IMG/VR virus record: IMGVR_UViG_3300021255_000054
DNA from: a virus
Lineage: Duplodnaviria; Caudoviricetes
Length of the DNA: 64,000 bases
Strand: one strand, 5' to 3'
A program made the position numbers and the translations under genes. The number at the start of each line of letters is the position of its first letter. Position 1 is the first letter of the stretch. The notes under the pieces are model-generated. The model was not told the origin of the DNA. It did not search any database and saw only the letters and a program-made list of their open reading frames with translations. Positions 10,838 through 28,087 of the stretch are shown piece by piece.

Positions 10838-10944
10838 AGGACTTTTTCTTATGTGTTTTTAGATGTTAAACATCCAAAAATGCCTATTGACAAATGATCT
10901 TTATAGATATATAATTGTATCATCAAATGAAGGAGGAACGAGCA

Positions 10945-11631: not shown

Positions 11632-11733
11632 TCCCAGTCTTATTATTTTAGATGTTAAACATCTAATTTATAAGACTTGCGAGACTCTAAAAGGTATGAT
11701 ATAATTAGGTATCAAATGAAGGAGGGATTCGCA

Positions 11734-11898: not shown

Positions 11899-12037
11899 AA
11901 TGAATTGCCCGAAACCGGGCAATTTCATTTTGAATATTTAGATGTTAAACATCTAACTTTATCTCTTGCAATATTCCCGAAAGTATGCTATTATATACTT
12001 GTCCGAAGGGACGAAAGAAAGAAAGGGGATTTGAAAC

Positions 12038-12205
12038 ATGATCGAGTATTATTGGATGCACAAAGAGGACGGTTACATCATTCCCGAAAGTCGGCTTGAA
12101 GATGATTGCTATCTCAACGGCTATGATGATGTGATTGACCCGTGTTCGGTTGAGTACGGCAATTTCAATCTCTATTATGAAAAGACCACCTTGCGCGTAA
12201 AGTAA
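12038..12205 (+). CDS. Small acidic hypothetical protein (not in ORF track)
   Basis: AAAGGGG SD; MIEYYWMHKEDG...RVK-TAA, followed by a terminator hairpin. Confidence 0.65.
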   Translation: MIEYYWMHKEDGYIIPESRLEDDCYLNGYDDVIDPCSVEYGNFNLYYEKTTLRVK

Positions 12206-12335
12206 AACGCGCGCATCCCGAAAGGGATGCATAAAAGTTAGATGTTAAACATCTAAATTTCCCTATTGACTTTCCTATATAAAGTGATATAATGATATTG
12301 TCCTCAGAGAGAGGATAAGAAAGGAGATTAGCATT

Positions 12336-12572
12336 ATGTGGTTGTTCTATTGTGACAATAGCGGATGGATTCCTATGGGGAACGATGGACAGATGAAAGT
12401 CCCGGCCCGCATCAGCACGCGCAAGCTGCACCAGCTGGCGGAAGCATTGCTCAGCGGACGAGCTGGAAGAATTTACCTTATGACAAGCTGGACCCAGCAG
12501 ATGTCCGAGCTTGGTCCGCGCGCTTTTGAAGAATATATCCAGCGCAATGGAAAAGTAGTGGTTCATTCGTGA
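12336..12572 (+). CDS. Hypothetical protein (array unit)
   Basis: AAGGAG SD; intact ORF. Confidence 0.75.
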   Translation: MWLFYCDNSGWIPMGNDGQMKVPARISTRKLHQLAEALLSGRAGRIYLMTSWTQQMSELGPRAFEEYIQRNGKVVVHS

Positions 12573-12689
12573 ACCACTATTTCATTTTAAAATATTTAGA
12601 TGTTAAACATCTAAAATAATATGTTGACATTTTCCCGATACTATGCTATTATATAATTGTCCAAAGGGACAGAAAGGATGGTAACTCAA

Positions 12690-12875
12690 ATGGATACTCG
12701 TTATATGATGACTACTACCTATACTGATTTCTCCACCAAATGTGAACGCAGTGATGATTTTTATACACTTATGCGAGCTGCATCTATTTACTGGGAAGAC
12801 CCAAGCTGCGTATATATTCATATTTGGGATAATGCGCTGGAAAAAGATATATTCTCATATGAACAGCCCTGTTAA
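12690..12875 (+). CDS. Small hypothetical protein (array unit)
   Basis: GAAAGG SD; intact ORF. Confidence 0.65.
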   Translation: MDTRYMMTTTYTDFSTKCERSDDFYTLMRAASIYWEDPSCVYIHIWDNALEKDIFSYEQPC

Positions 12876-12950
12876 GGGCTTTATTATTTTAGATGTTAAA
12901 CATCTAAATTCATCTCTTGACTTCTCTTATAATATATGATATTATACTAC

Positions 12951-13120
12951 TGTCGAAAGGGGGAAGGGAAGATGATTCCACCGGGTTAGTAGTCCCAAGG
13001 TCACGGGTTGGTACCGGACTGGCGGGATTATATGACGCAACCAACTGCCGCTAACTTGCCGTGGCGAAGCAAGCTGGTGAAATTGAGCCAATTGGCGGAT
13101 TGATCACCCGCCAATTCTTT
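12951..13120 (+). ncRNA. Putative structured small RNA occupying a whole array unit
   Basis: Palindrome and promoter, then a GC-rich segment with hairpins and terminator AATTGGCGG/CCGCCAATT-TTTT; no standard-code ORF. Confidence 0.55.
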
Positions 13121-13236
13121 TATGTAAATAATTAGATGTTAAACATCTAAAACTAACCCTTGACTTCTTCTCTTCTTTATGATATCATATAATTGTTCCA
13201 AGGGGAACGAAATAAATATGAGAGAAGGACACGAAC

Positions 13237-13476
13237 ATGACAATGACGATTGAAAAGAAACTCCGGGACTTCAACTTCTGGGGCGGTGCCGCTACCAACG
13301 CCGCGAAACTGACTCCTGAAGAGCTGGACACACTGGAATATCAGCTGGAAGAAATGATTGGCATTGACGAACCTTGGAGCACCACGGAGGTTAATGACTG
13401 GATGTGGTTCGACTTTGAAAGTATCTGCAACGAGTGGCTTAGAATTGATTATGAAGAAGTAATGGCGAGGACATAA
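13237..13476 (+). CDS. Acidic hypothetical protein (array unit)
   Basis: Intact ORF, SD, terminator. Confidence 0.75.
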   Translation: MTMTIEKKLRDFNFWGGAATNAAKLTPEELDTLEYQLEEMIGIDEPWSTTEVNDWMWFDFESICNEWLRIDYEEVMART

Positions 13477-13598
13477 TCCTCGCCTTTATTTCATTATAGA
13501 ATTTTAGATGTTAAACATCTAATTTTATAGTTTGACATTCTCCTTAAACTATGCTATTATATACTTGTTCCAAGGGGAACAGAAAGGAAGTATGAGAT

Positions 13599-13820
13599 AT
13601 GCTTAAAGTCACAAAGACATATGCGCGCACATTGTACGATATGGGAAAGCCCGTAATGATTATTCCGAATAAGATGCGCACTGATTCTTTTATGGCGTGC
13701 TGGCAAATAAAGCCGTTTAATGATCCAAACGCCAGCTTTGATAAGCTGGTAAATGCGATTAGCTATTATAATTGTTCTCCCGAAACTGGTTTGGGACTTG
13801 CATATTATACACAGGAATAA
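13599..13820 (+). CDS. Hypothetical protein (array unit)
   Basis: Intact ORF; YYNC..ETG motif. Confidence 0.75.
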   Translation: MLKVTKTYARTLYDMGKPVMIIPNKMRTDSFMACWQIKPFNDPNASFDKLVNAISYYNCSPETGLGLAYYTQE

Positions 13821-13942
13821 GGGCCTCGCCCTTATTTCATTTTAAAAAAGTTAGATGTTAAACATCTAATTTATATGATTGACTATTTCCTAATACTATG
13901 TTATAGTGTACTTGTCCAAAGGACAGAAAGGAAGTAAGAGCA

Positions 13943-14413
13943 ATGACAGATGAAGTTATCAAGGCTATGCAAGGCGACAAGAAGAAACACAAGGCGCGCA
14001 AATGGTGGCACAAGAACGGTTACAAGGTCATGCGCGTGATCCTGTTCCCGATCTGGATTGGTAGTATCCTGCTTGAAAAAGGGCGCAAATGGCTCAACAA
14101 TCAGCAGGAATGGAGCGAAGAACGCGCCACCGAAATTCTCAACTACTACATCCCGCGCGCGTCTAAATGGGATGATAAAGACAAGTGTCTTTACTTCTTC
14201 GACAATGGTATGGGCTGGAATTACAAACTTGCAAAGCGGTATCTCAAAAGGAAAGACCGCCGTTTCTGGAAAGTGCATTGCACTTGGTGGGGCGGCAAAA
14301 TGCGTACCCTGTTGATGGAAAAATTCGAGCTTGAAGGATTCACAAAAGAGCTTGGCAACTGTTCCGAAGGTTGGACAGAAATTTCTTTCGTACTGAATGA
14401 GAAAAAAGGTTAA
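13943..14413 (+). CDS. Trp/Lys-rich hypothetical protein with one hydrophobic segment
   Basis: Intact ORF, SD. Confidence 0.75.
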   Translation: MTDEVIKAMQGDKKKHKARKWWHKNGYKVMRVILFPIWIGSILLEKGRKWLNNQQEWSEERATEILNYYIPRASKWDDKDKCLYFFDNGMGWNYKLAKRYLKRKDRRFWKVHCTWWGGKMRTLLMEKFELEGFTKELGNCSEGWTEISFVLNEKKG

Positions 14414-14567
14414 CAAACCCTTTTTCTGTGGATGATAATTGTTAAGGCGCGCGGGCGCCTTTCTATTTTAGATGTTAAACATCTAACTTTTACCATTGAC
14501 TTTCTTATATAGGTATGATATATTATACTTGTTCCAAGAGAGAAGGAACAGAAAGGAAGTATGCAGT

Positions 14568-14822
14568 ATGACTAGAGTTGGGCCGTATCTGTGGGAAATT
14601 GATGTACAGGATATGAAACTTGAAGAACTTGACGCTCTACAGTCAATCGTCAATGATACGATCAAACAGCGCAGAATGGAACAGTGCTATGAAAAGAAAC
14701 TGCATGACCTGATTGATGAAGCCAAATCCAAGGGCGTATGCTTTAACTATAATGGTCTTTGCACTTGGATTTGTCTTACTGAAACACAGGACAAGATTTA
14801 CGCTTCTCCTGACGGGGATTAA
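14568..14822 (+). CDS. Hypothetical protein (array unit)
   Basis: AAAGGAAG SD; intact ORF. Confidence 0.65.
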   Translation: MTRVGPYLWEIDVQDMKLEELDALQSIVNDTIKQRRMEQCYEKKLHDLIDEAKSKGVCFNYNGLCTWICLTETQDKIYASPDGD

Positions 14823-14940
14823 TATCCCCAATTTTATTTTATTTTAAAATAAATTAGATGTTAAACATCTAACTTTCTCTGTTGACTTTCCTGTTACTAT
14901 ATGATATACTTACATCATCAAAGAAAGGGAGGCCACCACG

Positions 14941-15246
14941 ATGGAAATGACTTATCACGTAAAGGTTCAGAGGGCAAACCGGGTACAGCATATCATTAAT
15001 GATATCGGTATGGGCCAGATTGTTAAGGAGAAGTTTGTAAACAACTGCTACACCTGTATTACTGATACTGGCATTACCATTATCAAGTCAGCTGACAAGC
15101 TGAAGATTGTAACTATGTATGTTACAACCTACAGAGAGCTGGTAAAGGTTTATGAAGGAACCAAGCGGATTCCTCCGTACCTGAAGAAGCGGGTTGACCG
15201 CAATCAGTCTAAATATACTAATGATGGGAAAACAATTTGGAGGTAA
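14941..15246 (+). CDS. Hypothetical protein (array unit)
   Basis: GGGAGG SD; intact ORF. Confidence 0.75.
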   Translation: MEMTYHVKVQRANRVQHIINDIGMGQIVKEKFVNNCYTCITDTGITIIKSADKLKIVTMYVTTYRELVKVYEGTKRIPPYLKKRVDRNQSKYTNDGKTIWR

Positions 15247-15252
15247 GCTGAA

Positions 15253-15585
15253 ATGAAGATCGCAGTTACTCAATGGTATGAATTGACGGATGAACAGGTA
15301 CAAGAGTTAATTAATAATATGTATGAAGACTTAGACTCTGTACCAGCTATGAATTATGTTGAAGAAAGGTTAATGGATTATTGCGCTTCTATGTTCGCAG
15401 ATACTTTTGAAGTTACTAACAGCGATGATGAAGTTGAAGAAATCTACAATGAAGTTAAACGCAGGATTGAAAGCGACGTTAAATTACAGTTAAAGCGTAA
15501 AATTGCAGAACTTGAAAAAGAAATTGCTAAGAGTAGAGAAGAATTGAAAACCGCGCGGGAAAAACTTTTGAGAATGGACGAGTAA
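15253..15585 (+). CDS. Coiled-coil hypothetical protein
   Basis: GGAGGT SD; co-transcribed with the previous gene. Confidence 0.75.
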   Translation: MKIAVTQWYELTDEQVQELINNMYEDLDSVPAMNYVEERLMDYCASMFADTFEVTNSDDEVEEIYNEVKRRIESDVKLQLKRKIAELEKEIAKSREELKTAREKLLRMDE

Positions 15586-15679
15586 TCGTCCATTATTATA
15601 TTAGATGTTAAACATCTAATTCTAATATTTGACTTAATTTCATTTTTATGATATTATATCTATGCAAGGAGGGGATAAG

Positions 15680-16368
15680 ATGAGTAAGAAACAGAAACCC
15701 ACCCCTAAAACTTGGGTTGAAGTATTTCAAGGAGAACGGAAGGAGTTTCCACAGGGATATTGCGTCACTCGTATTATCCCAGACAAGCGCAAGAAAGCAC
15801 CAAAACATAAGGAAAGGGAGTTTGATGACTGATGCCTTGGTGGTGGGATGTTCGTAATGTAATCAATAATAAGTTGATTCGCTTTCTGTTAAATCGTTGT
15901 GTGATTGATAGTTGCACCCTTCGTAAAATTGTTTATAAAGTATCTAATTATGAATTACAGCCAATTATGGACGAGAAGGAAAAGGAGTTTGACGAATGAA
16001 ATATAAATGGGTTATCATGCAGGAACTTGAGGATAGTGGTTGCGCGAATCCTTATTTGATTGTAGATACCGAAAAGCGCGCCGAAGAACTATGCTATAAG
16101 TTAGAATCCGAAAACCCGGGCTTTATCTTCTGGTCTTATATGTGTAAGGAGGAATAATATGAATATTGTTACTCGTACCTATTACATCCCCCGTAACCAG
16201 ATTGGGCGCTATGTAATGAATTATATTGTTGAAAAGGTTGGTTGCTCTGTCGGTGAATTTAAGTTGAATCGTCAGGCCGAAACTATTCGTTTCTCTATCA
16301 CTTGCAAAATTAACGATGTACCTACCGTTGAAAAGATTTTGCGGCTTTATGATATGTTAGGGGAGTAA
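15680..16368 (+). CDS. Four translationally coupled small genes (15680-15832, 15832-15999, 15996-16157, 16159-16368)
   Basis: TGATG/ATGA overlaps, each with an SD, inside one palindrome-bounded unit. Confidence 0.65.
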
Positions 16369-16445
16369 TTTCCCCTTCAAATAATTAGATGTTAAACATC
16401 TAAAACAAAGCGTTGACTTTTCCCGAAATTTGAGTATAATAATAA

Positions 16446-16525
16446 TTGTTCCGAGGGACGGAAGGCGATGGAACACCGTGGCAAGTGCCGGCTTACCCAC
16501 AACTTGCGCACCGCCCCTCGAACAA
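16446..16525 (+). ncRNA. Putative ~80-nt hairpin RNA between tandem promoters
   Basis: TTGTTC(C)GAGGG pairs with CCCTCGAACAA leaving a bulged C; inner GCAAGT/ACTTGC stem. Confidence 0.55.
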
Positions 16526-16654
16526 AAAATTTTCAGACTAATACTTGACTTTCAAGTAGAAATCTGATATAATGAAGATGTTCCAAGGGAACAAAAATAA
16601 AATTGTGCAGGGCGGTCTGCCGTAAACTAAACCGCAGAGAAAAAGGAGTAAATT

Positions 16655-17146
16655 ATGAAGACTGCTGAAATTATTTCTAAGATCATGGAAATCCCCGGTG
16701 CTACTATGGGTCGTGCGAACAAGACCAACTTTATCGTTGTTCCTACTGAGGACGGTTACAGCAAGGTTAGCGTGACTGCCGCTCTGGCTAAGGACACCAA
16801 GAACCACAGCGCTTTCAATTATGAAGCCGCTGTTGCCGAGTACAAGGCTTGGGAAGCCGAAGCCGCTCTCCGCGCCGCTGAACGTGCTAACAAGCCCGTT
16901 AAGGTCAAGGGCCCCAACCCCGAAGCCGAAGCTCGCCGTCAGGCTCTTGATGCCGCCATCACCGCTCTTCCTTCCTTCACGAATGCTACTGCGACCGATG
17001 TGTTTAATATGTTTGCCGAGGGTGAACAGCCCAAGACCGTTATGCTTGTCGGTTCTGCTCTTAAGCGTCTTGTCGAAGCGGGCGTTGTAGTTGCTACCAA
17101 GTCCGAGGACGCCAAGGACAAGAAGACCTATTACACTAAGGCGTAA
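16655..17146 (+). CDS. Protein with C-terminal winged-helix domain
   Basis: ...VGSALKRLVEAGVVVATKSEDAKDKKTYYTKA; strong codon bias. Confidence 0.7.
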   Translation: MKTAEIISKIMEIPGATMGRANKTNFIVVPTEDGYSKVSVTAALAKDTKNHSAFNYEAAVAEYKAWEAEAALRAAERANKPVKVKGPNPEAEARRQALDAAITALPSFTNATATDVFNMFAEGEQPKTVMLVGSALKRLVEAGVVVATKSEDAKDKKTYYTKA

Positions 17147-17297
17147 TTCCCAGCCCCTAACGGGGCTTTTCTTTTTGGGATTCTTTTTAGATGTTAAACA
17201 TCTAACTTATTGTATTGCAATTTCATTTTAAATATGATATTATACTTATGTAAACGAAAGGAGAAGGATACTCCCTAAAACCAGAAAGGAAAATGTT

Positions 17298-17585
17298 ATG
17301 AAGATTTGGACAGTTGAAGAATATATTGTTCTAGATGAGATTAGTTACTGCGTTAGTCAATTTTATGGTCATTGGGAATTTTCTACCAAAGAAAAAGCAA
17401 TTCAAGCAGTATATAATCATCTGCGCGAACTTAATATTGACGAAGAAGACATTAAAAATCATATTAAAGAATGGGATGAAGATGATGAACTACATCATAT
17501 GAGAACTAAATTTGATAACTATGATATGTATGATTGCCGTTATGATATTCGGATGATCGAACTTGATCAGAAAATCGAAATTTAA
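17298..17585 (+). CDS. Hypothetical protein (array unit)
   Basis: Intact ORF; resembles 24517..24759 (MKIW/MKIY...S..EKA). Confidence 0.7.
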   Translation: MKIWTVEEYIVLDEISYCVSQFYGHWEFSTKEKAIQAVYNHLRELNIDEEDIKNHIKEWDEDDELHHMRTKFDNYDMYDCRYDIRMIELDQKIEI

Positions 17586-17725
17586 GGGCTTTGCGCCCTT
17601 TTCATATTTAGATGTTAAACATCTAATTTCATTTTAAAATTGCCTATTGACTTTCCTATTACTCTATGATATACTTATTCCAGAAAGTGAAGGAAAACAC
17701 TTAGAAACCAGAAAGGGATTGACTG

Positions 17726-18172
17726 ATGACGATTTGGTTTGATATGGATGGAACTATTGCGAACCTGTACGGCGTTGACGGTTGGCTTGATATGCTTCGA
17801 GCTTATGACCCGAAGCCCTACGCAGAAGCTGAAGTTATGCTGAATATGAGTGTGCTTGCGCGATATCTGCATAAGGCACAGCGAGCTGGAATCTCTATCG
17901 GGATTATCAGCTGGCTCAGCCGCTCCTCTACCCCTGAATATGATGAAGCTGTTGAAGAAACTAAGCTGGGCTGGCTTGCTGAACATCTCCCCTCTGTAGA
18001 TTGGGATGAAATCAACATTGTCGATTATGGTACCGATAAGTCCATCTTTATGAATAGTGATGAAGATATTCTGTTCGATGATGAACCCAAGAACCGTGAA
18101 AACTGGGATGGACTCGCTTTCACTCCCGATGAGATTATGGAAGTCTTGAAGGGACTGACGAAAGGGCGGTAA
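17726..18172 (+). CDS. HAD-family 5'(3')-nucleotidase-like phosphatase
   Basis: Motif I WFDMDGT; motif IV ILFDD. Confidence 0.8.
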   Translation: MTIWFDMDGTIANLYGVDGWLDMLRAYDPKPYAEAEVMLNMSVLARYLHKAQRAGISIGIISWLSRSSTPEYDEAVEETKLGWLAEHLPSVDWDEINIVDYGTDKSIFMNSDEDILFDDEPKNRENWDGLAFTPDEIMEVLKGLTKGR

Positions 18173-18293
18173 GCCCTTTTTATTATAATTAGATGTTAAA
18201 CATCTAATTATATTCGTTGACAATTTTATTTCAATTTGATATACTACTTATGAAAGTTGAAGGAAAACAACTCAAACCGGAAAGGGTACTCGT

Positions 18294-19052
18294 ATGTATG
18301 TAATGATCTTTGATACTGAAACTACCGGACTGGACAAGCCTTTCTGTTATGATGTAGGCTATTTTATCGTCGATACTGATAGGCATTTTACTGCAGAACA
18401 GCGGCATTTCGTTATTGAACAGGTTTGGCACAATCTGCCGCTTTTTGAATCTGCGTACTATAAAGACAAGCGTCCGCAGTATGTCCAGCTTATGCGCAAA
18501 CGTCTTGCCATTATGGACAAATGGGGTTACGTTATGCAACAGATTAAGCGCGATCTGCGTAAGTATAATGTAACTGACGCTTATGCTTACAATTCTGATT
18601 TTGATGACAAAGTGTTCGCTTTCAACTGTGATTGGTTTAAATGCAATAATCCTCTTGAAGATATCGCAATTCACGATATTTGGGGCTATGCCAGTCAGTA
18701 TATCACAAATACTCCCGAATATAGGGCTTTCTGTGAAACACATAGTTTCTTTACTGATACGGGTAACTACAAGGCCAGTGCAGAAATTGTCTATCGGTAT
18801 CTTTCCGGTGTAGTGGATTTTGAAGAAAAGCATATGGGGCTTTATGACGTAGGGATTGAAGCGTTTATTCTTGATGAATGTATTCAACTTGGAGCAGAAT
18901 GGAATCTTGACTATAAGGTCAACCGCATTCTCCCCAGACAGATTGAAAAACCTTTTCAGATTTTCGTAGACGGCGAATGTATTGTATCGGACAATTATAT
19001 TAAGAAATATGTTCGTAACGATGTATACAAATTCACTACGGCCCAGTCCTAA
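18294..19052 (+). CDS. DEDDh 3'-5' exonuclease
   Basis: FDTETTG, AYNSDFD, HMGLYD. Confidence 0.85.
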   Translation: MYVMIFDTETTGLDKPFCYDVGYFIVDTDRHFTAEQRHFVIEQVWHNLPLFESAYYKDKRPQYVQLMRKRLAIMDKWGYVMQQIKRDLRKYNVTDAYAYNSDFDDKVFAFNCDWFKCNNPLEDIAIHDIWGYASQYITNTPEYRAFCETHSFFTDTGNYKASAEIVYRYLSGVVDFEEKHMGLYDVGIEAFILDECIQLGAEWNLDYKVNRILPRQIEKPFQIFVDGECIVSDNYIKKYVRNDVYKFTTAQS

Positions 19053-19131
19053 AACTGGGCCTTTCTTTCTTAGATGTTAAACATCTAAAACAAGTAATTG
19101 ACTTTTCCTAAAATTGTGATATACTTATAAC

Positions 19132-19232
19132 TGTCAAGAGGAGATGCGAGGTAGAGAAAATGAGAAGCGCGCCTCTGAGTTCGAGAGACAAGGGCAAAAG
19201 AAATTCAAAAGAATTTCAAAAAACCTCTTGAC
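19132..19232 (+). ncRNA. Putative leader/small RNA between tandem promoters
   Basis: TGTCAAGAGG at the first start site is the exact complement of CCTCTTGACA, which contains the -35 of the second promoter. Confidence 0.45.
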
Positions 19233-19307
19233 AACTTCCCAAACTTATGATATACTTAATACGAAAACAGGGGAAGGAAAACCCCACAAACCAGAAAGGA
19301 TACTATT

Positions 19308-19646
19308 ATGAAGAAGACTTCTATGGAAAGACTCGTTGGTTACATCAATGACAATGCCGTTACTGACCTGTTTGATATTCGTGATGAGATGACGGCCGAA
19401 CTCAAGAAGAACAAGGATAAGGCGGACGCTAACCGCGCCCTGTATGAGGAAGCGCACGATATCGTGATCGACGCTATCCCGACCGAAACTCCCGTCACCG
19501 TTGCCGAACTGTTTGAAGCGATTGAGTCCGAACTGCCGGAAGGCTTCACCAAGGCTAAGGTGAATTACGCTCTTACCCATTACTGGGAAGAGGATGTGAA
19601 TAAGATTCCCGGTAAGGTTAACTCCTATACCCGTAAGGTGAGCTAA
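19308..19646 (+). CDS. Coiled-coil plus winged-helix protein (paralog of 23523..23852)
   Basis: TVAELFEAIESELPEGFTKAKVNYALTHYW...GKVNSY. Confidence 0.75.
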   Translation: MKKTSMERLVGYINDNAVTDLFDIRDEMTAELKKNKDKADANRALYEEAHDIVIDAIPTETPVTVAELFEAIESELPEGFTKAKVNYALTHYWEEDVNKIPGKVNSYTRKVS

Positions 19647-19803
19647 TGCTCACCTTTTTCTTTTACAAGGAATTAGATGTTAAACATCTAAAATTGTATA
19701 CAGTATTCTTTTAAAAAAATGCTTGACAATTTTTCAAATTTATAGTATACTTATTCCAGAAACGGAGAAGGAAAACTCCACAAACCAGAGAGGAGCAATG
19801 CTT

Positions 19804-20214
19804 ATGAATAAGGCACAGCTTGAAACCGCTATTCGCAATGACTTTCTTGATTCTATTATGAAGTATATCTCTGAATCCCGTGAAACTGATGTGCTCCCTG
19901 TTAGCGCAAACGAACTTGCCGTTCCTTGTCTGGATGCTGAGGGCAACGAAAAGTGGGTTCTGATTAAGGTTTCTATTCCTCGTGGTAGCCGTAACGGCGA
20001 AGGCGGATACGAACCTTATGATGGTTATTCTGTCGCAGAAGATTACCAGTTTGACCTTGCTGATAAGGCAAAAAAGAAACGTGTAGCGGAAGAACAGAAA
20101 GCCAAGAAAATCGCGGCTGATGAAAAGAAGCGTGCGGAAAAGAAAGCGCTTGCCGAAGCGAATAAGAATCTGAAAGAACTCCGTAAGATTAAGGTTACTC
20201 CCGAAAGGGAGTAA
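19804..20214 (+). CDS. Hypothetical protein with Lys-rich coiled-coil tail
   Basis: Intact ORF; architecture similar to the next gene. Confidence 0.7.
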   Translation: MNKAQLETAIRNDFLDSIMKYISESRETDVLPVSANELAVPCLDAEGNEKWVLIKVSIPRGSRNGEGGYEPYDGYSVAEDYQFDLADKAKKKRVAEEQKAKKIAADEKKRAEKKALAEANKNLKELRKIKVTPERE

Positions 20215-20341
20215 CCCAATTTCATCCCGAGTTATTAGATGTTAAACATCTAATTATTCTATGTTGACATTTCCCAATATCTATGCTATACTATCCACGA
20301 AAGGTGAAGGAAAACACCAGAAAACCAGAAAGGAAATTGAA

Positions 20342-20722
20342 ATGCCTAAGATTTCTAAGACTGTTGTTGACAAGGCTCTGCGTGATGGTATTTTCTTTGA
20401 TATGTTCCAGAATGATTGTGGAATGTATGACTATGTAAAAATCAATGACCGCCAGTATGGCACTATCATTACCGATTTGAACGGCATTGAACGCTATGTG
20501 CGCATTGGCGCGATTGTCGCAGAAGAACGTGAGGATATGACTGCGCGCGAACTTATGCAGAAGGAAATTGATGAGTATAAGGCCAAGCAGGCGGAAAAGG
20601 CCGAAAAGGCTAAGAAGAAGGAAGAAAAGATTGCCAAGGATAAGGCCAAGCGCCAGAAGGAACAGGAACAGGAAGAAGAAGATGACCCTAACCAGTTTCT
20701 TCCTAATGAAGTGACGGTTTAA
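20342..20722 (+). CDS. Hypothetical protein with Lys/Glu coiled-coil tail
   Basis: AAAGGA SD; intact ORF. Confidence 0.7.
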   Translation: MPKISKTVVDKALRDGIFFDMFQNDCGMYDYVKINDRQYGTIITDLNGIERYVRIGAIVAEEREDMTARELMQKEIDEYKAKQAEKAEKAKKKEEKIAKDKAKRQKEQEQEEEDDPNQFLPNEVTV

Positions 20723-20740
20723 TAGAAAGGAATGATAATA

Positions 20741-21010
20741 ATGTTGAAAGTCACAACCTATCCTCACATTGAAGATTCTGAAATTGCTCGTCTGTGCGGT
20801 GAAGATGTAGCCGAACATATGTCTCTTCACTATGAAGCCAAAAATGGTACAAGTGAAAGCTTTTGTGTTCTGACAGAAGAAGAAATCAAAGAACTTGAAG
20901 AAGATGAAGATGATTGGTTTGATGAAAAATGGAAACTTGGCCTGACTAAAATGTTACTGGAAAATGGCTTCAAGCACGGCGATAGAGTATATATTGATTT
21001 CTTTTGGTAA
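20741..21010 (+). CDS. Acidic hypothetical protein
   Basis: Intact ORF. Confidence 0.65.
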   Translation: MLKVTTYPHIEDSEIARLCGEDVAEHMSLHYEAKNGTSESFCVLTEEEIKELEEDEDDWFDEKWKLGLTKMLLENGFKHGDRVYIDFFW

Positions 21011-21027
21011 GAGTGGAGGAAAAGAAA

Positions 21028-21219
21028 ATGCCTGATGAAAAATGCCCCAATTGCTTATCGGGAGAATATGATGTTGATAATTACTGGGATGATTTTGATG
21101 AAGACGGTGGTATCAGAGTATGGGAATGTATTTGTTCCTCCTGTCATAAAAAATTTGATATCACATATGAATATAAATGCATCAAAACAACAGTTGAAAT
21201 AGAGGTTAGCGCAAGCTAA
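21028..21219 (+). CDS. Small Zn-ribbon protein
   Basis: CPNC...CSSC. Confidence 0.65.
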   Translation: MPDEKCPNCLSGEYDVDNYWDDFDEDGGIRVWECICSSCHKKFDITYEYKCIKTTVEIEVSAS

Positions 21220-21354
21220 CCTCTTTCTTTATATATTAGATGTTAAACATCTAATTCTTTCCCTTGCAATTTCCCTATAACTATGGTATTATATCATTGT
21301 TCCAAGGGGAACACGAAAGAGGAAGGATACCTCACAAACCAGAAAGGTTACTAT

Positions 21355-22341
21355 ATGCGCAAAGAACTCCGTTATATGGTTTTGGACACTGAGACCGCCA
21401 CTCTTCCCTTTGCTAATGAAATTGCCCAGAATAATCCTGAGAAGAAGAAAAAAATTGCTATCGCTCGCCCTCTTGTGTATGATATTGGTTGGACTATCAC
21501 CAACCGCAAGGGCGAGATTTTGGATAAGAAGCAGTTTCTGATTGCCGAAACTTTTGCCGTTCCCGCCGTGTTCAATACTGCATATTATGCAGAAAAGCGG
21601 CCGCTCTATCTGGAAATGTTGAAAGAGAACAAGACCTCTATCAAGCCGTGGGGCGAAGTGATGGAACTCTTTGTTGAAGATCTTCAGCAGGTCGATGCCG
21701 TTGGGGCATACAATGCAATGTTTGACTTCAAGAAAGCAATTCCCTTTACTGAACTGTACATTAACAAACTGTACAGCCCTGATTATCAGAATTGGGAGTT
21801 CCTTCAGCGCAAGATGTGTACTAAGATTGCTAACGAGAAGTATCAGAAGAAGGAAGAAAAAGAATTTGATGGTGATTTCTTCACCTTCCGTGGCAAGTCT
21901 TATCCTCTGTTTGACCTTTGGGGACTTGCGACCAAGCACCTTTTGAATAACGCCACTTATAAGAAACAGTGCCTTGACCATAATCTTTTAACCGCAAGCG
22001 GAACATTCTTCAAGACTAGCGCCGAATCTTCTTTTCAATATCTATGCGACCGCTATGATTTTGAAGAAAGTCACACCGCACTTGATGACGCTATGATTGA
22101 AACCCATATTCTTTCTTGTGTAGCCAAGAAGCACGCTATCTCTACTGGAATTACTTTCTTCCCCTTCCGTGAATTGGGTACTACTACTGAATTTGTAATG
22201 CGTAGGAAAACTCCTCACATTAATGAAGTAATGGTAGTATATGAAGCAATCATAGCATATATTGAAACCAAGGAAGAATCTCGGTACGTGGTTGGATTGC
22301 GTAATATGTTGAAAGAATTGGAAGAATATATGGCGGGATAA
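21355..22341 (+). CDS. DEDDh 3'-5' exonuclease (second paralog)
   Basis: LDTETAT, AYNAMFD, HTALDDA; shares AYY..KRP and SAE motifs with 18294..19052. Confidence 0.85.
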   Translation: MRKELRYMVLDTETATLPFANEIAQNNPEKKKKIAIARPLVYDIGWTITNRKGEILDKKQFLIAETFAVPAVFNTAYYAEKRPLYLEMLKENKTSIKPWGEVMELFVEDLQQVDAVGAYNAMFDFKKAIPFTELYINKLYSPDYQNWEFLQRKMCTKIANEKYQKKEEKEFDGDFFTFRGKSYPLFDLWGLATKHLLNNATYKKQCLDHNLLTASGTFFKTSAESSFQYLCDRYDFEESHTALDDAMIETHILSCVAKKHAISTGITFFPFRELGTTTEFVMRRKTPHINEVMVVYEAIIAYIETKEESRYVVGLRNMLKELEEYMAG

Positions 22342-22473
22342 CCGCCATATTTCATTTCAGATTATTAGATGTTAAACATCTAAAAAGAAATATTGACTTT
22401 CTCCTAAAATTGAGTATAATATAATCATCAGGTGAAGGAAAACACCGAAACACCAGAAAGGAAGTTTAAAACT

Positions 22474-22683
22474 ATGAAGAAGCCGATTACCGTTCGTGTC
22501 AAGAAAACACTGACTTTTGATGAAACTGACGTGTGTAGCATCGCCAAAGATATGTCATATACTTTCTGGAACTCAGGATATTTTGAAGACATTGAACCCA
22601 GCGATATTGATGATGAAGATTTCGCAGGTCTGGTTCGCGCCATCGCCGATGAGTTTCAGAAAATTGTGGAGGAAGATAAATAA
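22474..22683 (+). CDS. Small acidic hypothetical protein
   Basis: Conserved leader and SD. Confidence 0.65.
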   Translation: MKKPITVRVKKTLTFDETDVCSIAKDMSYTFWNSGYFEDIEPSDIDDEDFAGLVRAIADEFQKIVEEDK

Positions 22684-22786
22684 TATGGAAATTAATGTGC
22701 GTGCGAAACATATATTCAATGAGGACTAATAGTCCTCTTTTTTATTTATAATAATTAGATGTTAAACATCTAATAAAAAATGGCGC

Positions 22787-23205
22787 TTATCGCGCCAACT
22801 TCAGAATCCGTTTGAACCAACTAACTTTCTCTTCGTAAATAGGTTCAACAGTAATTTCATAGATAATCTTATGCTTTTCTCTATCCATCAAATACAGACG
22901 AGGACTTCCCATATAATACCATACAGTTTTTCCTCTCTCGTGAACAAAATCCAAAATAGCTTTATCAGGAATATGTCTATCAAATTCCTGACCGCCATAC
23001 ATAATATCCAAACCATCTTTCTTAGGGATATACACAAGGCGCTTTTTCATTATCCAATCACCACCTGAATTTCCATATTCTCTCCACACTTATACTGAAT
23101 CAAATCATTAGCCCGCTTTTCCGCTTCTTCCATAGTATTAAAAACTTCATTGACCTCAACAAAATAACCAAGGGGCCAGCACGTACCAGTCAGACGATAC
23201 TTCAT
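22787..23205 (-). CDS. Inverted unit with two coupled genes (23205-23050 and 23050-22787)
   Basis: Minus-strand TTGACT/TATAAT promoter 9 nt from palindrome 23274; TAATG overlap. Confidence 0.65.
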
Positions 23206-23336
23206 TCCATCATCGCTCCCTTCATTTGATAATTACATTATACTCAGATTTTCCTAAAAGTCAACTACCATTATTAGATGTTAAACATCTAACTATTAGT
23301 GGTTGACTTTTCTCTAATTTGTGATATACTTATAAC

Positions 23337-23404
23337 TGTCAGAGGGAGAACGGGAGCGGAAACAAATCTCCTTGGAAACAGAAGACCCGATGTTTCTCTT
23401 GACC
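23337..23404 (+). ncRNA. Putative ~70-nt hairpin RNA between tandem promoters
   Basis: GTCAGAGGGAGAA pairs with TTTCTCTTGAC; inner CGGG/CCCG stem. Confidence 0.45.
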
Positions 23405-23522
23405 GAAAATAAAAGGGAGAAAATTTTCGGAAACCTCTTGACAAGCTTCCAAAACTGTGGTACAATAACCACGAAAGATGAAGGGAAGGAAAACCCTAAA
23501 AACCAGAAAGGAAATGAAACCT

Positions 23523-23852
23523 ATGAAAAAGACTACTATGACCGCCATCGTTACCGCTCTGACTGCTATCGACTCTGAGAAGTATTCCGACCTGATCGCC
23601 GAAGTTAATGCCGAACTGAACAAGGGCGCGGAGCAGAAGCAGAAGAATGCCGATGCCTATGAGTCCATCCACGATCTGGTTGTTGGCAATCTGGGCGATG
23701 CTCCTTGCACCTGCGCCGAACTGTATGAAGCCATCAAGGATGAACTGCCTGATGGTATGGGCAAGGGCAAGGTTCAGTATGCTCTGACTCACCTGTGGCA
23801 GGATGAGATTGTGAAGATTGAGGGTAAGCCGAATACCTATCGGAGGGCGTAA
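23523..23852 (+). CDS. Coiled-coil plus winged-helix protein
   Basis: TCAELYEAIKDELPDGMGKGKVQYALTHLW...EGKPNTY. Confidence 0.75.
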   Translation: MKKTTMTAIVTALTAIDSEKYSDLIAEVNAELNKGAEQKQKNADAYESIHDLVVGNLGDAPCTCAELYEAIKDELPDGMGKGKVQYALTHLWQDEIVKIEGKPNTYRRA

Positions 23853-23862
23853 GCCCTCCACG

Positions 23863-24201
23863 GGTTGTGCGGTAAGACATCGGCTCGCACAGATACGTAG
23901 AACATCGGTGGATTAAGCGTATCAACCACGAGGAGATTTCTGAAGGTTTACAGTGTGGCTAAACAACTAAAGCCTTCCCACGAGGGTTTCCAAGGGCTTT
24001 CAGTGTGGTTAAACAACATAAGCCCTTTTATATGGCGATGGAGGGACACGGCCTACCCCACAGTTAGCAAGTTCGACTCTTGCCGTTGCCACGACTTACC
24101 TAGTGGCAGAAGCCCTATCCACTTAAAAACGTGGGCGGATGAAGTAGACCATCAAAGCAACTACAGTGAGGGCGCTTACCCCACAACCGCCTTCGGGCGG
24201 T
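23863..24201 (+). ncRNA. ~330-nt structured RNA with a tRNA-like domain lacking an anticodon arm
   Basis: Terminal 14-bp stem 23863-76/24175-88; duplicated hairpins; acceptor-like GGCGATG/CGTTGCC plus T-arm GCAAG-TTCGACT-CTTGC; terminator 24186-24206. Confidence 0.7.
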
Positions 24202-24311
24202 ATTTTTATTTTCAATTATTAGATGTTAAACATCTAATTAAAGGTATTGCAATTTTCCTATAATATGATATAATAGCATTGTTCCAAGAGGAACGGAAAG
24301 GATGAAGTAAA

Positions 24312-24515
24312 ATGGAAAAACCTATTCGCAAATTTCAGTACATCAATGCATATGGTATCAAGAAACAACTTAATGTATATGAAATGGTCAATAATAAGTA
24401 TCCAGTAGAACTGTGGGCAACTAGATATGGGGAATATTGTGGGTCAGGTGAAATGACGAAACAAGAACTTAACGATTATTTAGAGCACTTTGGTATTACG
24501 GAAAGGATGGAATAA
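24312..24515 (+). CDS. Small hypothetical protein
   Basis: Intact ORF, SD. Confidence 0.7.
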   Translation: MEKPIRKFQYINAYGIKKQLNVYEMVNNKYPVELWATRYGEYCGSGEMTKQELNDYLEHFGITERME

Positions 24516-24516
24516 A

Positions 24517-24759
24517 ATGAAAATTTATGAAGTTATCGAGTATGTAGATAATGCAGAAAATGCTTTTGGCTACTATTCTTCTCTTGAAAAGGCACAGCAG
24601 GGAATTTTGACACGAGTAAAAGATGCTTATACAGATGAAGAGATGAAAGCTTTTCATTTTGATGAAGATGGATATGGCTATTCGACCACAGAAAATGAAT
24701 GGGTAGCCGCTTGTGATTATGTAATCTTTGAACACGAATTGGATAAGGAGATGGAGTAA
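24517..24759 (+). CDS. Small acidic hypothetical protein
   Basis: Intact ORF. Confidence 0.7.
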   Translation: MKIYEVIEYVDNAENAFGYYSSLEKAQQGILTRVKDAYTDEEMKAFHFDEDGYGYSTTENEWVAACDYVIFEHELDKEME

Positions 24760-24760
24760 A

Positions 24761-25015
24761 ATGCAGACAATTAAAAACTGGTTCGGCATTGAAACTTCCT
24801 ATAAGTTTGAATGGAATGACCTTCGTTGCGGCATTACTATCTTGAATGTAGTTCTGATTATGCTCTTTGGCTTGCAGGTATCTTGGTTCGGGCTTGCAAT
24901 CGCGCTCTTTGGTGTGTGTAAAGACCTCTCCCAGCATCGGCATATCAATGATATTCTTATGCACTTGTCTAGTGTAGTATTGAATGTATACTTCCTTTCC
25001 CTTCTGTATAGGTAG
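24761..25015 (+). CDS. Small membrane protein (ends at TAG)
   Basis: Two to three hydrophobic segments; the TAG lies in the terminator stem. Confidence 0.65.
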   Translation: MQTIKNWFGIETSYKFEWNDLRCGITILNVVLIMLFGLQVSWFGLAIALFGVCKDLSQHRHINDILMHLSSVVLNVYFLSLLYR

Positions 25016-25127
25016 GCAATGCCTATCTTCCATACTTAGATGTTAAACATCTAAAAGTTTCTCTTGCATTTTTTCCAAAGTATGATATAATTATATCGTT
25101 CCAAGGGAACAGAAAGGATGATTGAGA

Positions 25128-25560
25128 ATGCGTGAACTATATGAAAAATACTACACTATCAGATTGTGGTTTCAGCCCGATGACCGTGTGACCCCAGACA
25201 TCATTGACCTTGAAGGCGAGTATGATTCTGAAGAAGAAGCAATAGTATTCGCGCGAGAACACATTCCTCTTACTTTTGGATGGGAACATATTATTGTTCC
25301 TCATTATCGAAAACTTTCAAATTTAAAGTTGACAAATACTCCTAATGGTGATATAATGATGATGATCTCGAAAGGAAAGGAAAGGAGTAATGAGAGTGAA
25401 TAACATCATTCCGATTGATTCTGAGGAAAAGGAACTTTGTTGTTTGTGTATATTAGGTCTTGTGCTTTATGATTATATGACACCTTCGGCAAGACAATTA
25501 TATGATACTCTTACTGAAGAAGACAAGCAAGAGATTAAGAAAAAATTTATAAAAGGATAA
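25128..25560 (+). CDS. Two small hypothetical genes (25128-25403, 25390-25560)
   Basis: SDs present; internal TTGACA/TATAAT promoter near 25329. Confidence 0.55.
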
Positions 25561-25648
25561 TGAGTATGAAGTATCAGTACTACAAGGGAGAGTAAAACTC
25601 TCCCTTTTATTTTTAGATGTTAAACATCTAAATAAAAAAGTATGCACA

Positions 25649-26197
25649 TTAGTGCATACAATTCGTGAAATTACAGTAGCCAGCCGAACAAGCATAATCT
25701 ACAACTACTCCCTTTCCCTTATACATACCCACATTCCAAGCGTGCAGGTCACACATATATTTCTTCAGGAAAGCCCGTTCATCATCATCCCAACCATACT
25801 CCATTTCAGCATAATCATAGTTCCCAACATGATTGACTTTCCGCATAGCATAATAATACTTTCCGTCAATCATAAAGCGGTACATAGGCGCGAGAAGATA
25901 GGAATAAGGAGTCCGACTCAGCTTCTGGTAAACTTTATATTCCTGTTCGCATCCACCAATACGGCCGCAAGCCTTATCATCATAATCTATCTTAATCACA
26001 TAGTCCGGCCCAATCAGGCAGATACGCGCGCTCCCATAATCCATCTCAATATGGCGATGATATTCCATATTAAAGGACTCTACTCCTTCTTCTACATAGC
26101 CACGGCGATCATATTTATTCATTATATCAAAATCAGGAATATATTGCGCAAACTGCTTCATAAACTTTTCAGCCCGAATCTGCCAAGGATTAGCCAT
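25649..26197 (-). CDS. Protein-kinase-like protein
   Basis: GSARI...VIK, helix-C Glu (EQEY), catalytic loop DLHAWN, DYA in the DFG position. Confidence 0.75.
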   Translation of the reverse strand: MANPWQIRAEKFMKQFAQYIPDFDIMNKYDRRGYVEEGVESFNMEYHRHIEMDYGSARICLIGPDYVIKIDYDDKACGRIGGCEQEYKVYQKLSRTPYSYLLAPMYRFMIDGKYYYAMRKVNHVGNYDYAEMEYGWDDDERAFLKKYMCDLHAWNVGMYKGKGVVVDYACSAGYCNFTNCMH

Positions 26198-26307
26198 CTC
26201 TCAAACACCCCTTTCTTGATTACGGGATAAGTATATCATAAGTTAAGAAAAGAGTCAATAGGATATTTTAGATGTTTAACATCTAACTTACTGAGGGGCT
26301 TTCGCCC

Positions 26308-26751
26308 TCAGTCGATAATATCTTCAACAGGAACATTATACCATTCCTTAATCCGTTTATACAACATCCGTTTAGTACCACCAAACATCCAACTATCCTC
26401 AGTTTCTACTAACTGATTAGTATCAAACAAAACAATATCAAGCACATCACTATAATAGCCATTCTGCTCATTGTAACACGGCACGAAGAAAGACCGCTGT
26501 CCGCATAACCTAATTCCTGCTCTCCTTCTCCACGCTACTTCTTCAATTCGCAAATCAGAAAAATCTGTATCCATCAATCCGGCTTCATCTTTAATATAAT
26601 CCCAATTAGCATATACATTCTCACAGCAATCCTGACTATGAGTATCGATCAGAAGCCACCCATTATCAAATAAAATACCACCATTGGCATCAAATGAAGT
26701 CTTACTCAGAATCTCATCACCATCATAAACAAACCGCGCAATCTTAACCAT
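26308..26751 (-). CDS. Hypothetical protein (QDCCE / NGYYS family)
   Basis: Intact ORF with the conserved leader on the minus strand. Confidence 0.7.
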   Translation of the reverse strand: MVKIARFVYDGDEILSKTSFDANGGILFDNGWLLIDTHSQDCCENVYANWDYIKDEAGLMDTDFSDLRIEEVAWRRRAGIRLCGQRSFFVPCYNEQNGYYSDVLDIVLFDTNQLVETEDSWMFGGTKRMLYKRIKEWYNVPVEDIID

Positions 26752-26868
26752 AACTTACTCCCTTCTGGTTTCTAAGGTATCCTTCCTTTTATGTATGTAT
26801 TATATAATAAAGTAATAGAAAAGTCAATAAGGAATTTTAGATGTTAAACATCTAACTTCTCAAGACCG

Positions 26869-27273
26869 TCAAACGGTCTTGCAATAGAAACACCATTTAA
26901 TATCAAAAATATATTTCAATTCAAATCCTTCTGATTCAAGCAGATGCCGCATTCCCGCATTATCATCCCACGGAGTTGCCCCAACATTACCGTGTACAAT
27001 TTTAGTAATTTCTTGTAGAGCATATCGAGCGATACCTTTACCTTGATTTTTCTTATTACAAATACATAATCTTTTAATAGCGGTATAATTATATTGCGGT
27101 TCGGGTACAAGCGAAACAGTCGCCAATACTTTCTCGTTATCCGCAACAACATACAGCCGCCGCTGTCTATAATCCAAGTCCACTTGTGCCGGAGTAAGAT
27201 ACGTAAGATGCTTATATCTTAAAGCATTAATAACTTTCATTAAATCTTTATGTGTTGCTAATCTCAATTCCAT
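26869..27273 (-). CDS. GNAT-family acetyltransferase
   Basis: Acetyl-CoA motif QGKGIA; N..MRHLLESEGF. Confidence 0.8.
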   Translation of the reverse strand: MELRLATHKDLMKVINALRYKHLTYLTPAQVDLDYRQRRLYVVADNEKVLATVSLVPEPQYNYTAIKRLCICNKKNQGKGIARYALQEITKIVHGNVGATPWDDNAGMRHLLESEGFELKYIFDIKWCFYCKTV

Positions 27274-27373
27274 ACCATACGCTCCCTTCAGGTGATAGCT
27301 ATATTATAGCATGAATAGGAGAAAAGTCAAGCGACATTTTTAGATGTATTACATCTAAATTTATAAAGAAGGC

Positions 27374-27988
27374 TCACGCCTTCTTCTCTGCAATTATTTT
27401 AAATATAGCCGGATTACTAAATGCTTCACATAATTTATAATAAGCAGTTTCATTTACATAAAACCATTCATTAGCTCTCTGAGCTTTAGCATAAGCATAT
27501 TTTTCTAAATATTGATGGCAAAAACGTTCTGCTCTATCCGACTTTGTAGTTTCATAATATCCACCAATATATAGCATAGGATTATATGTAGCATAAGAAG
27601 ATACACGAGAATAAAGATTCTTCGCTCTTCCAACCTTAACCAAATAATATTTCTCGCCAGCGGGATTGATTCCAATCATTCCAAGAAAGTACACTCCCTC
27701 TGTACAAGGCAGCTCATCTGTTTTGGCACAATTGATTTCTAATGTAGGAATTTCATCTTTTAATGTTTCATCTTTTTTATGCACTCCCGCTTTATCATAT
27801 ACATAATGAAATTCTAAGCCATATCTGGCATTTGCACTCAAAGGGGAACGAAAATCATGATAAATACATTCCAATGTAGCTTCAGAAATATTTCCATCTT
27901 CATCTGAAAAGAACTCAACCATATTATTCCAGTGATATGTAGCAATACGTTCTTCAATTTCCTGTTCATATTTATACATTCTTTCCAT
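27374..27988 (-). CDS. T5orf172/GIY-YIG-like domain protein
   Basis: GVYFL...VKVGRAKNLYSRVSSY..NP...EWF. Confidence 0.7.
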   Translation of the reverse strand: MERMYKYEQEIEERIATYHWNNMVEFFSDEDGNISEATLECIYHDFRSPLSANARYGLEFHYVYDKAGVHKKDETLKDEIPTLEINCAKTDELPCTEGVYFLGMIGINPAGEKYYLVKVGRAKNLYSRVSSYATYNPMLYIGGYYETTKSDRAERFCHQYLEKYAYAKAQRANEWFYVNETAYYKLCEAFSNPAIFKIIAEKKA

Positions 27989-28087
27989 TCTCCCTTCACT
28001 TCATGAGTACATTATATCAGAAATTTATGAAAAGTCAATAATATAAATTAGATGTTATACATCTAATTTCACTCCCTGTCAAATATT

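Follow-up and report, generated by a model that had tools for sequence, protein, structure and literature searches.

A predicted mosaic RNA tail with an anticodon-less tRNA-like unit behind an early gene of a rumen phage

Why would a phage carry a tRNA-like unit that lacks an anticodon arm in the non-coding stretch behind an early gene? Such a unit is located at positions 24034-24091 of the window, the 64,000-nucleotide (nt) stretch of DNA analyzed here, which belongs to IMG/VR virus record IMGVR_UViG_3300021255_000054 (Duplodnaviria; Caudoviricetes). In the original prediction, the surrounding region (23863-24201) was regarded as one non-coding RNA of about 330 nt, closed by pairing between its two ends. 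The RNA is the tail, or 3' untranslated region, of about 350 nt, of the early mRNA of a conserved gene for a protein of 109 amino acids (aa). Comparison with about 90 related phage contigs, given here as L numbers, shows that this tail is a mosaic of independently swapped RNA modules and not one closed RNA of 330 nt. One of the modules, termed module C, is an undescribed, highly conserved RNA motif that occurs in more than 65 rumen phage contigs.

Layout and exchange of the modules in the tail

The transcription unit contains the following elements, in order:

23303-23330, + strand: promoter P1, weaker, upstream of P2
23438..23466, + strand: promoter P2, matching the sigma-70 consensus at 11/12 positions, with an extended -10
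23523..23852, + strand: gene of the 109-aa protein, with a winged-helix-like C-terminal half
23842..23859, + strand: stop-codon hairpin, with the stop codon in its loop and no U tract
23860..23929, + strand: module A, two hairpins and a pseudoknot, including the 5' strand of the proposed closing stem
23866-71 with 23886-91, + strand: hairpin 1 of module A
23892-98 with 23917-23, + strand: hairpin 2 of module A
23908-11 with 23926-29, + strand: pseudoknot of module A
23926..23977, + strand: module C copy 1
23978..24027, + strand: module C copy 2
24028..24033, + strand: linker
24034..24091, + strand: tRNA-like domain
24092..24185, + strand: 3' domain, with 24175-88 as the 3' half of the closing stem that was proposed
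24186..24210, + strand: intrinsic terminator, with a GC-rich stem of 6 bp, a tetraloop, and a T run

No promoter on the plus strand lies between 23466 and 24247, and the hairpin at 24186-24210 is the sole plus-strand terminator of the unit. With one promoter and one terminator, the RNA must be co-transcribed with the 109-aa gene. The stop-codon hairpin has no U tract, so transcription reads through it; both this hairpin ahead of the RNA and the terminator at its end had been described correctly before. Where the RNA is absent, as in the relatives L035, L047, L050, and others, a T run follows the stop-codon hairpin, which then serves as the terminator. In other relatives, a non-coding stretch of 100-500 nt, the content of which varies from phage to phage, is located between the stop-codon hairpin and a second terminator, and the same terminator module is found 3' of the tRNA-like units of many relatives. 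Among contigs from RNA libraries, the conserved leader and the end of the gene are well covered and the tail is covered thinly, with one piece over 23860-23958; such cover does not establish transcription, and its gaps carry no weight either way.

The structured, non-coding nature of the region was borne out. No protein family was recognized in it, and the compensatory and G.U changes in its stems fit the plus strand only. Two open reading frames overlap the RNA, at 23955-24263 on the plus strand and 23734-23925 on the minus strand, and neither matches a protein family; the former crosses the terminator and the next promoter. A coding role was rejected.

The modular composition of the tail can be seen in its closest relatives. 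L073, L106, and L113, whose proteins are 97-99% identical to the 109-aa protein, have different sets and orders of modules, which implies that the tail rearranges much faster than the gene diverges. L106 and L113 lack the 3' domain, and L073 lacks the tRNA-like unit. In L073, where the protein is 99% identical, a different 5' domain and one module C are present, and the 3' domain (97% identical) directly follows module C with no tRNA-like unit between them. The gains and losses of modules among near-identical relatives have lengths that are not divisible by three. The joints found in public sequencing runs show the same module losses as the relatives; for instance, in DNA run X3 position 24092 is joined to 24187, as in a relative without the 3' domain.

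Module A is conserved in L083, L127, L132, L106, and L113. Its hairpin 1 shows a compensatory double change in L127 and two wobble changes in L083; for the second helix and the pseudoknot, a compensatory change occurs in L113 (in the pseudoknot) and a wobble intermediate in L106. In these relatives, the 5' strand of the proposed closing stem pairs locally, with a partner 15 nt downstream. The repeated word ACATCGG is indeed present twice, at 23877 and 23902, and since the first copy differs in relatives the duplication is not conserved. Pairing of module A with the repeated CCCCACA word was also considered and rejected, as the relatives show no consistent covariation for it. The folding z-score of module A is -2.2, and that of the 3' domain is -0.8.

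Complementarity between 23863-76 and 24175-88 exists as first described, at 13 of 14 positions with one C.C mismatch, and was reached at long range by only 1 of 300 dinucleotide shuffles of the region. The idea that these two ends close the region did not hold, however. The halves sit in modules that occur separately, and the 5' half has the covarying local partner mentioned above; the five relatives with module A all have the 5' strand, and none has the 3' partner. RNAfold does not pick the closing stem. The closing pairing is thus not conserved, and it may be specific to the window or an alternative pairing. L073 can still pair 8/9 with the same 3' end. The word on the 3' strand of the closing stem recurs in the core of the tRNA-like unit and in a second RNA of the window, at 16446-16525.

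This second RNA is a small hairpin RNA that precedes another winged-helix-like gene and is flanked by two promoters. Three words are common to it and the mini-tRNA: the initial 9 nt of the acceptor strand, the T-stem sequence, and CTTACCC(C)ACA. The hairpin RNA has no T loop, and it looks like a paralogue or recombination partner.

Module C and the slot behind it

Module C is a unit of about 50 nt, in which a short linker joins a 5' CCACG to a hairpin with a stem of 8 bp and a loop of 20 nt. The two near-identical hairpins reported at this place were recovered at 23942-77 and 23992-24027, as parts of two copies of the module:

23926..23977, + strand: copy 1, a diverged duplicate with 5' CCACG, 8-bp stem, and 20-nt loop
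23978..24027, + strand: copy 2, the consensus form
CCACG 23978-82 with loop 24004-08, + strand: pseudoknot of copy 2
23992-99 with 24020-27, + strand: stem of copy 2

The stem of copy 1 differs from that of copy 2 and yet pairs, with the loop retained. A search of metagenomes with the loop pattern gave 67 loci, 65 of which are distinct, and the motif occurs in about 10 viral contigs as well. In 63 of the 65 loci, module C lies 33-220 nt downstream of a homologue of the 109-aa gene. In an alignment of 71 rows, with copy 1 as row 1, pairing is kept in 96.6% of the cells. At the outer stem pair, 32 rows have AU and 29 have GC. At the pseudoknot pair, where the final base of CCACG meets the loop, 56 rows have GU, 8 have GC, and 6 have AU, and no row is unpaired. 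These pairing values were reached in none of 500 shuffles. The many G.U pairs fit only the plus strand, which indicates that module C acts as RNA. The 20-nt loop is near-invariant; since it was part of the search pattern, this conservation is partly a matter of ascertainment. Conservation of the 5' word CCACGAGG, which was outside the search pattern, still reaches at least 90%.

All relatives have one copy of module C, and the window has two; a metagenome scan for the twin-hairpin form found no other instance. Module C was found in none of 185,579 prokaryote species genomes and has no entry in Rfam. In some relatives, short-loop hairpin variants occupy its position. In about 11 relatives, a T run directly follows the stem, and the palindrome and promoter of the next cassette come after it. 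Module C must therefore be the 3' terminal hairpin of the mRNA in these phages. A C/U-rich tail follows module C at about 9 loci.

Two other pairings of the loop were tried and rejected. A small local helix drawn by RNAfold is broken by U-to-C variants, which fit the pseudoknot. T-box-like pairing of the loop UGGY with the 3' end of a tRNA was discarded because Y does not follow the discriminator base.

The element behind module C has the following parts:

24028..24033, + strand: U/A-rich linker with U at -1, the predicted RNase P leader
24034..24091, + strand: tRNA-like domain of 58 nt, with no anticodon arm and no encoded CCA
24034-40 with 24084-90, + strand: acceptor stem, 7 bp, perfect
24043-45 with 24056-58, + strand: D-like stem, 3 bp, with GG in the loop
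24067-83, + strand: T arm, with a 5-bp stem, a canonical 7-nt loop, and the G53-C61 pair
24091, + strand: discriminator A (position 73), followed by CGA

The acceptor stem, T arm, and D-like arm with GG of this anticodon-less unit, and its lack of CCA, agree with the first description. Eight nucleotides replace the anticodon and variable arms. From the 5' strand of the acceptor to the T arm there are 26 nt, and an anticodon stem-loop with a 7-nt loop cannot form in this interval. The missing CCA is normal here, because most of the phage's own tRNA genes lack an encoded CCA. The Rfam and ARAGORN check that had been suggested gave no ARAGORN gene and no Rfam match in the 64-kb window (Rfam 15 at gathering score); with E up to 10 for 23400-24400, Rfam gave chance-level matches only. 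In the relatives, too, Rfam recognized none of the modules. The unit has no sequence match to any tRNA, and a scan of viral contigs for a T arm of its type gave no match. A tRNA fragment of the attP type was rejected, as both acceptor strands are present.

L106, L113, and L114 have retained units of the window type, with 95-96% identity. All stem changes in L106 and L113 keep the pairing (U.G to U-A, G-C to G.U), and in both contigs the fold of minimum energy is the tRNA-like one. The L106 and L113 copies have no Rfam match, whereas true tRNAs in the same slot do match.

The position of the unit is shared among the phages. Across the 65 distinct loci, the next element starts +32 to +35 nt from the start of the module C loop. 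For the unit in the window this offset is +33, a value that canonical tRNAs of relatives share. A short U/A-rich linker precedes the slot element, and its last base is nearly always U. At 13 loci, ARAGORN called a tRNA in the slot (Gln, Phe, Leu, Gly, and Lys among them), and Rfam RF00005 confirmed 5 of 13 tested loci (Phe, Lys, Gly, Leu, Leu). About 30 further loci contain tRNA-like slot units that neither program called.

Anticodon-less mimics of 79-110 nt fill the slot in relatives such as L004, L067, L077, L081, L108, L015, and L128. In the acceptors of all 21 distinct mimics, G1-C72, G2-C71, and G3.U70 are invariant. Pairs 4-7 covary freely with zero mismatches, and 20 of the 21 mimics end in ACCA. 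An acceptor set of the G3.U70 type is the alanine identity shared by tRNA-Ala and transfer-messenger RNA (tmRNA). These alanine-type mimics also occur free-standing inside phage tRNA arrays (L056:65-171, L059:9339-9450), and none of them was called by ARAGORN or Rfam. The window's unit does not bear the alanine-type marks, its acceptor having C3-G70 and G4.U69 and no G3.U70. A plant-virus tRNA-like element suggested by Rfam on L010 (E 0.59) was dismissed as chance-level, and a tag reading frame in the mimics was also dismissed, as no stop-terminated frame was seen by eye.

Two further features of the relatives are recorded here. In the core of the type-2 mimics (L015, L103, L118, L128), about 35-45 nt in, the word CCTCGTGG is the exact reverse complement of CCACGAGG; leader-body pairing between CCTCGTGG and CCACGAGG, in competition with the pseudoknot, is possible. 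At L086, L088, L105, L130, and about 20 other loci, a long C/U-rich repeat tail of the CCTTCC type extends from the slot element to the terminator. This tail complements the purine-rich leaders of early genes (e.g. window 23478-23495) and is anti-Shine-Dalgarno-like; it is absent from the window's RNA.

Possible roles of the tail

Given the observed anatomy, conservation, covariation, and slot equivalence, the most likely role of the tRNA-like unit, to which we would assign a little less than an even chance, is that of a cutting signal for RNase P and RNase Z that leaves an mRNA capped by module C. Transcription would begin at 23438-66, proceed through the 109-aa gene and past the U-less stop-codon hairpin, continue through module A, the two copies of module C, the 58-nt unit, and the 3' domain, and stop at 24186-24210. 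Host RNase P would cut between 24033 and 24034, and RNase Z would cut after 24091. The freed mini-tRNA would be unable to decode. The upstream mRNA would be left ending in module C, the structure at which the transcript also ends in relatives with no slot element. This terminator-like hairpin, capped by its pseudoknot, would have a short U-rich tail, and a compact pseudoknotted 3' hairpin should slow 3' exonucleases and might thereby stabilize the message.

The two cuts are proposed because the unit sits at the position of the tRNA slot and keeps the features that RNase P and RNase Z recognize: the 12-bp acceptor/T stack, the T loop, the GG of the D-like loop, U-1, and A73. Bacterial RNase P and RNase Z need only an acceptor/T-arm minihelix. 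In tRNA-punctuated transcripts, units of tRNA or tRNA-like type act as RNase P/Z cutting sites that release neighbouring RNAs. A Y RNA with a 7-bp acceptor-like stem is cleaved by RNase P (PMC4201824).

Several observations weigh against this role. A block to exonucleases does not account for the near-invariant 20-nt loop of module C, nor does this role explain the 13/14 complementarity of the ends, which is improbable by chance. In the window, the tRNA-like fold lies 1.7 kcal/mol above the minimum. Window-type units number only four near-identical copies, so that their covariation support is weak, and the folding z-scores of single modules are modest. Canonical tRNAs and strict alanine-type mimics in the same slot suggest cargo with functions of its own, and a pure cutting signal may be too narrow a role. 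Finally, the contigs from RNA libraries make no transcript ends visible, and DNA carry-over in them is possible.

The mini-tRNA may itself be the product: a decoy for a host factor that recognizes the top half of a tRNA, which the other modules serve to express and release. We regard this as possible and rather doubtful. Candidate targets would be SmpB, the CCA-adding enzyme, tRNA-modifying enzymes, or a defence nuclease or toxin directed at the acceptor or T arm. A phage that reads TAG as sense would be helped if tmRNA tagging were blocked at TAG-paused ribosomes, and this genome does have TAG recoding, together with a suppressor tRNA and RNA-repair-type genes. The alanine-type mimics of the slot, with G3.U70 and ACCA so strictly kept, point to selection beyond the needs of RNase P, and they also stand alone in tRNA arrays. 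A DS6A-like molecule that consists of the tRNA-like domain only inhibits tmRNA, whether charged or not (PMC4131195). The window's unit, however, lacks both G3.U70 and CCA, gives no tmRNA or tRNA match in ARAGORN or in Rfam at E up to 10, and is separated by 78 kb from the region of the tRNA and repair genes. It would escape recognition by anticodon nucleases, and the close relative L073 does without it.

A broader possibility, which we consider unlikely, is that module C and the tRNA slot form an undescribed phage RNA cassette with interchangeable cargo. The conserved pseudoknot leader would be set just one RNase P leader length ahead of this cargo, which may be a true tRNA, an alanine-type mimic, or a minimal mimic as in the window. 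Such a cassette would be either a bacterial counterpart of MALAT1/mascRNA in making and protecting an RNA 3' end or a fast-shuffling decoy array that is expressed early. As a decoy array, its alanine-type mimics may sponge the tmRNA-SmpB rescue that threatens a TAG-recoded phage.

Module C may also be the active part, as a sequence-specific binding site for the winged-helix-like protein encoded upstream (for autoregulation or for forming a ribonucleoprotein) or as a mimic of a host RNA (antitoxin or CRISPR-repeat-like), its duplication raising the dose; this seems decidedly improbable. It would agree with the position of the module behind the gene homologue in 63/65 loci, which may equally be plain synteny, and with the conservation of CCACGAGG outside the search pattern. 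The two copies, found in the window alone, and the fast shuffling of modules at 97-99% protein identity, as in an arms race, could be read the same way. However, no fold match singles out RNA binding, short-loop variants take the same position in some relatives, and the prokaryote genomes and Rfam offered no host RNA to be mimicked.

Still less probable is that neither part is functional, the tRNA-like unit being the debris of a decaying tRNA and the extra hairpin a recent duplication. Decay from a canonical tRNA had been named at the outset as the finding that would speak against a mimic. The part of that concern which persists is that the slot holds intact canonical tRNAs in relatives; the absence of any sequence match to a tRNA answers the other part. 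The lack of the unit in L073 and of the 3' domain in L106 and L113, as well as the solitary twin-hairpin form, would suit debris. The perfect acceptor and T stems, the canonical T loop and G53-C61, the pairing-preserving nature of all stem changes in L106 and L113, and the clean removal of the anticodon arm with no scattered erosion argue against it.

The closed scaffold of about 330 nt in the manner of a Y RNA, for instance for the Ro60-like DUF2828 protein, is very improbable: the end complementarity, its partial persistence in L073 despite another 5' domain, the word shared by the 3' strand with the tRNA-like core and the RNA at 16446-16525, and the DUF2828 gene of the genome are set against halves in separate modules, a stem that RNAfold does not choose, a DUF2828 gene 78 kb away with no TROVE match, an arm order foreign to YrlA, the absence of a GNCGAA-type motif, and RNase P/Z cutting that would split the molecule in three. 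A pistol or other self-cleaving ribozyme was rejected, having no Rfam support.

Genome setting and known counterparts

The source genome is a complete virus record of 189,572 bp with direct terminal repeats, from a rumen phage. The public runs in which the stretch was found come from gut samples, some of which (several) are labelled as sheep or goat gut. BLAST against 50,697 deposited phages gave no match. With TAG as a sense codon, a frame of 3,249 aa and many other long frames are open in the late-gene blocks; the 3,249-aa frame, at window 49269-59018, contains 28 in-frame TAGs. The early block at about 8.4-28 kb, which contains the RNA locus, is TAG-free and reads in the standard code. The genome has 25 tRNA genes, all outside the window, including one CUA suppressor (genome 165546-165630, within the tRNA array). 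Five acceptor/T-arm units in the tRNA array were not called by ARAGORN (genome 168789-168863, 178126-178208, 178293-178378, 178891-178958, and 179728-179811); in two of these units the acceptor stem has 8 bp and the T stem has 4 bp. An RNA-repair-type gene set is encoded, as is the DUF2828 (Ro60-like) protein, about 78 kb from the RNA locus; no TROVE match was found in the genome.

The early block is also marked by a 19-bp palindrome, TTAGATGT, followed by 1-5 variable bases and ACATCTAA. All 30 copies in the genome are inside this block (window 10560-28048; genome 92277-109765), one per cassette boundary and usually just 5' of a promoter. The copy nearest to the RNA is at 24219-24237, and in nearly all related loci the palindrome comes after the terminator.

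The 109-aa protein has homologues in about 30 viral contigs and belongs to no Pfam or PHROG family. Its AlphaFold model has a predicted local distance difference test (pLDDT) score of 83. In a wide fold search, residues 40-109 resembled many winged-helix domains, both DNA- and RNA-binding, with Z 5-6.7, and Foldseek returned nothing below E 4. The modelled fold likeness is too weak to assign a ligand or function.

Anticodon-less look-alikes of tRNA have been known in phages since the species 1 and 2 RNAs of T4. These RNAs (RNA C and RNA D) and RNA1 of T5 are co-transcribed phage products that undergo tRNA-like processing and have a tRNA's top half without an anticodon; we know of no explanation of their function. 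They are 115-140 nt long and located in tRNA clusters, whereas the unit described here has 58 nt and is found in the tail of an early mRNA, behind a conserved leader motif.

The tmRNA of mycobacteriophage DS6A consists of the tRNA-like domain only, and a similar molecule inhibits tmRNA with or without alanine charging (PMC4131195). Like it, the window's unit is phage-encoded and has an acceptor and T arm without an anticodon arm. The alanine end of the DS6A type, with G3.U70 and ACCA, is present in the slot units of relatives and not in the window's unit, which differs by C3-G70, G4.U69, the missing CCA, and a D-like stem. The tmRNA models of ARAGORN and Rfam did not match the window's unit, and these models cover domain-only forms poorly.

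YrlA RNAs, of 80-130 nt, are encoded beside the Ro60 gene; their paired ends bind Ro60, and a T arm, a closed acceptor-like stem-loop, and a D arm follow in this order. One Y RNA of the YrlA type is cut by RNase P and receives CCA, and phages are among the carriers of Y RNAs (PMC4201824). The window's RNA resembles YrlA in being a non-coding RNA with an anticodon-less tRNA-like domain. The resemblance to YrlA logic proposed in the original prediction goes no further: here the D-like arm comes before the T arm, the acceptor stem is an open one, and neither the size nor the distance to a Ro60-like gene agrees with YrlA. No GNCGAA-type motif is present in 23850-24215, and no Rfam Y RNA model matched there.

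Murine gammaherpesvirus 68 makes tRNA-linked viral RNAs, in which a non-charged tRNA mimic is joined to two hairpins that are microRNA precursors. There the mimic comes first and the hairpins follow; here the hairpins precede the mimic, in a transcript of bacterial type. Type III antitoxins such as ToxI are tandem pseudoknot repeats of 34-45 nt beside an endoribonuclease toxin. The arrangement here is different, with two copies in the window and one in 65 relatives. The genes neighbouring the RNA belong to no family, although no PADLOC search for anti-phage defences was made.

A parallel in organization is that of MALAT1/MEN-beta and mascRNA, in which a cut by RNase P at the 5' side of a tRNA-like unit creates a 3' end that a structured element protects. 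In both cases, a non-decoding tRNA-like unit of about 60 nt is located just 3' of a structured element, after a short linker, which ends in U in the phage, and the phage unit is predicted to define the 3' end of the upstream RNA in the same manner. Unlike MALAT1, the phage RNA is an mRNA in a bacterium, the putative protecting element is a pseudoknotted hairpin and not a triple helix of U-rich and A-rich strands, and no sequence relationship exists. If its 3' end is indeed defined by RNase P and protected, the phage would be stabilizing its early messages by a means that is new among bacterial viruses.

A single slot that holds tRNAs, alanine-type mimics, or a bare acceptor/T unit makes it possible to separate the requirements of processing from those of charging or decoy function. 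Rapid swapping of RNA modules also shows how the architecture of non-coding RNA evolves in large recoded phages. The components are of known kinds, namely the anticodon-less tRNA mimics of phages and punctuation of the tRNA type, and they are embedded in an undescribed modular cassette with a new motif.

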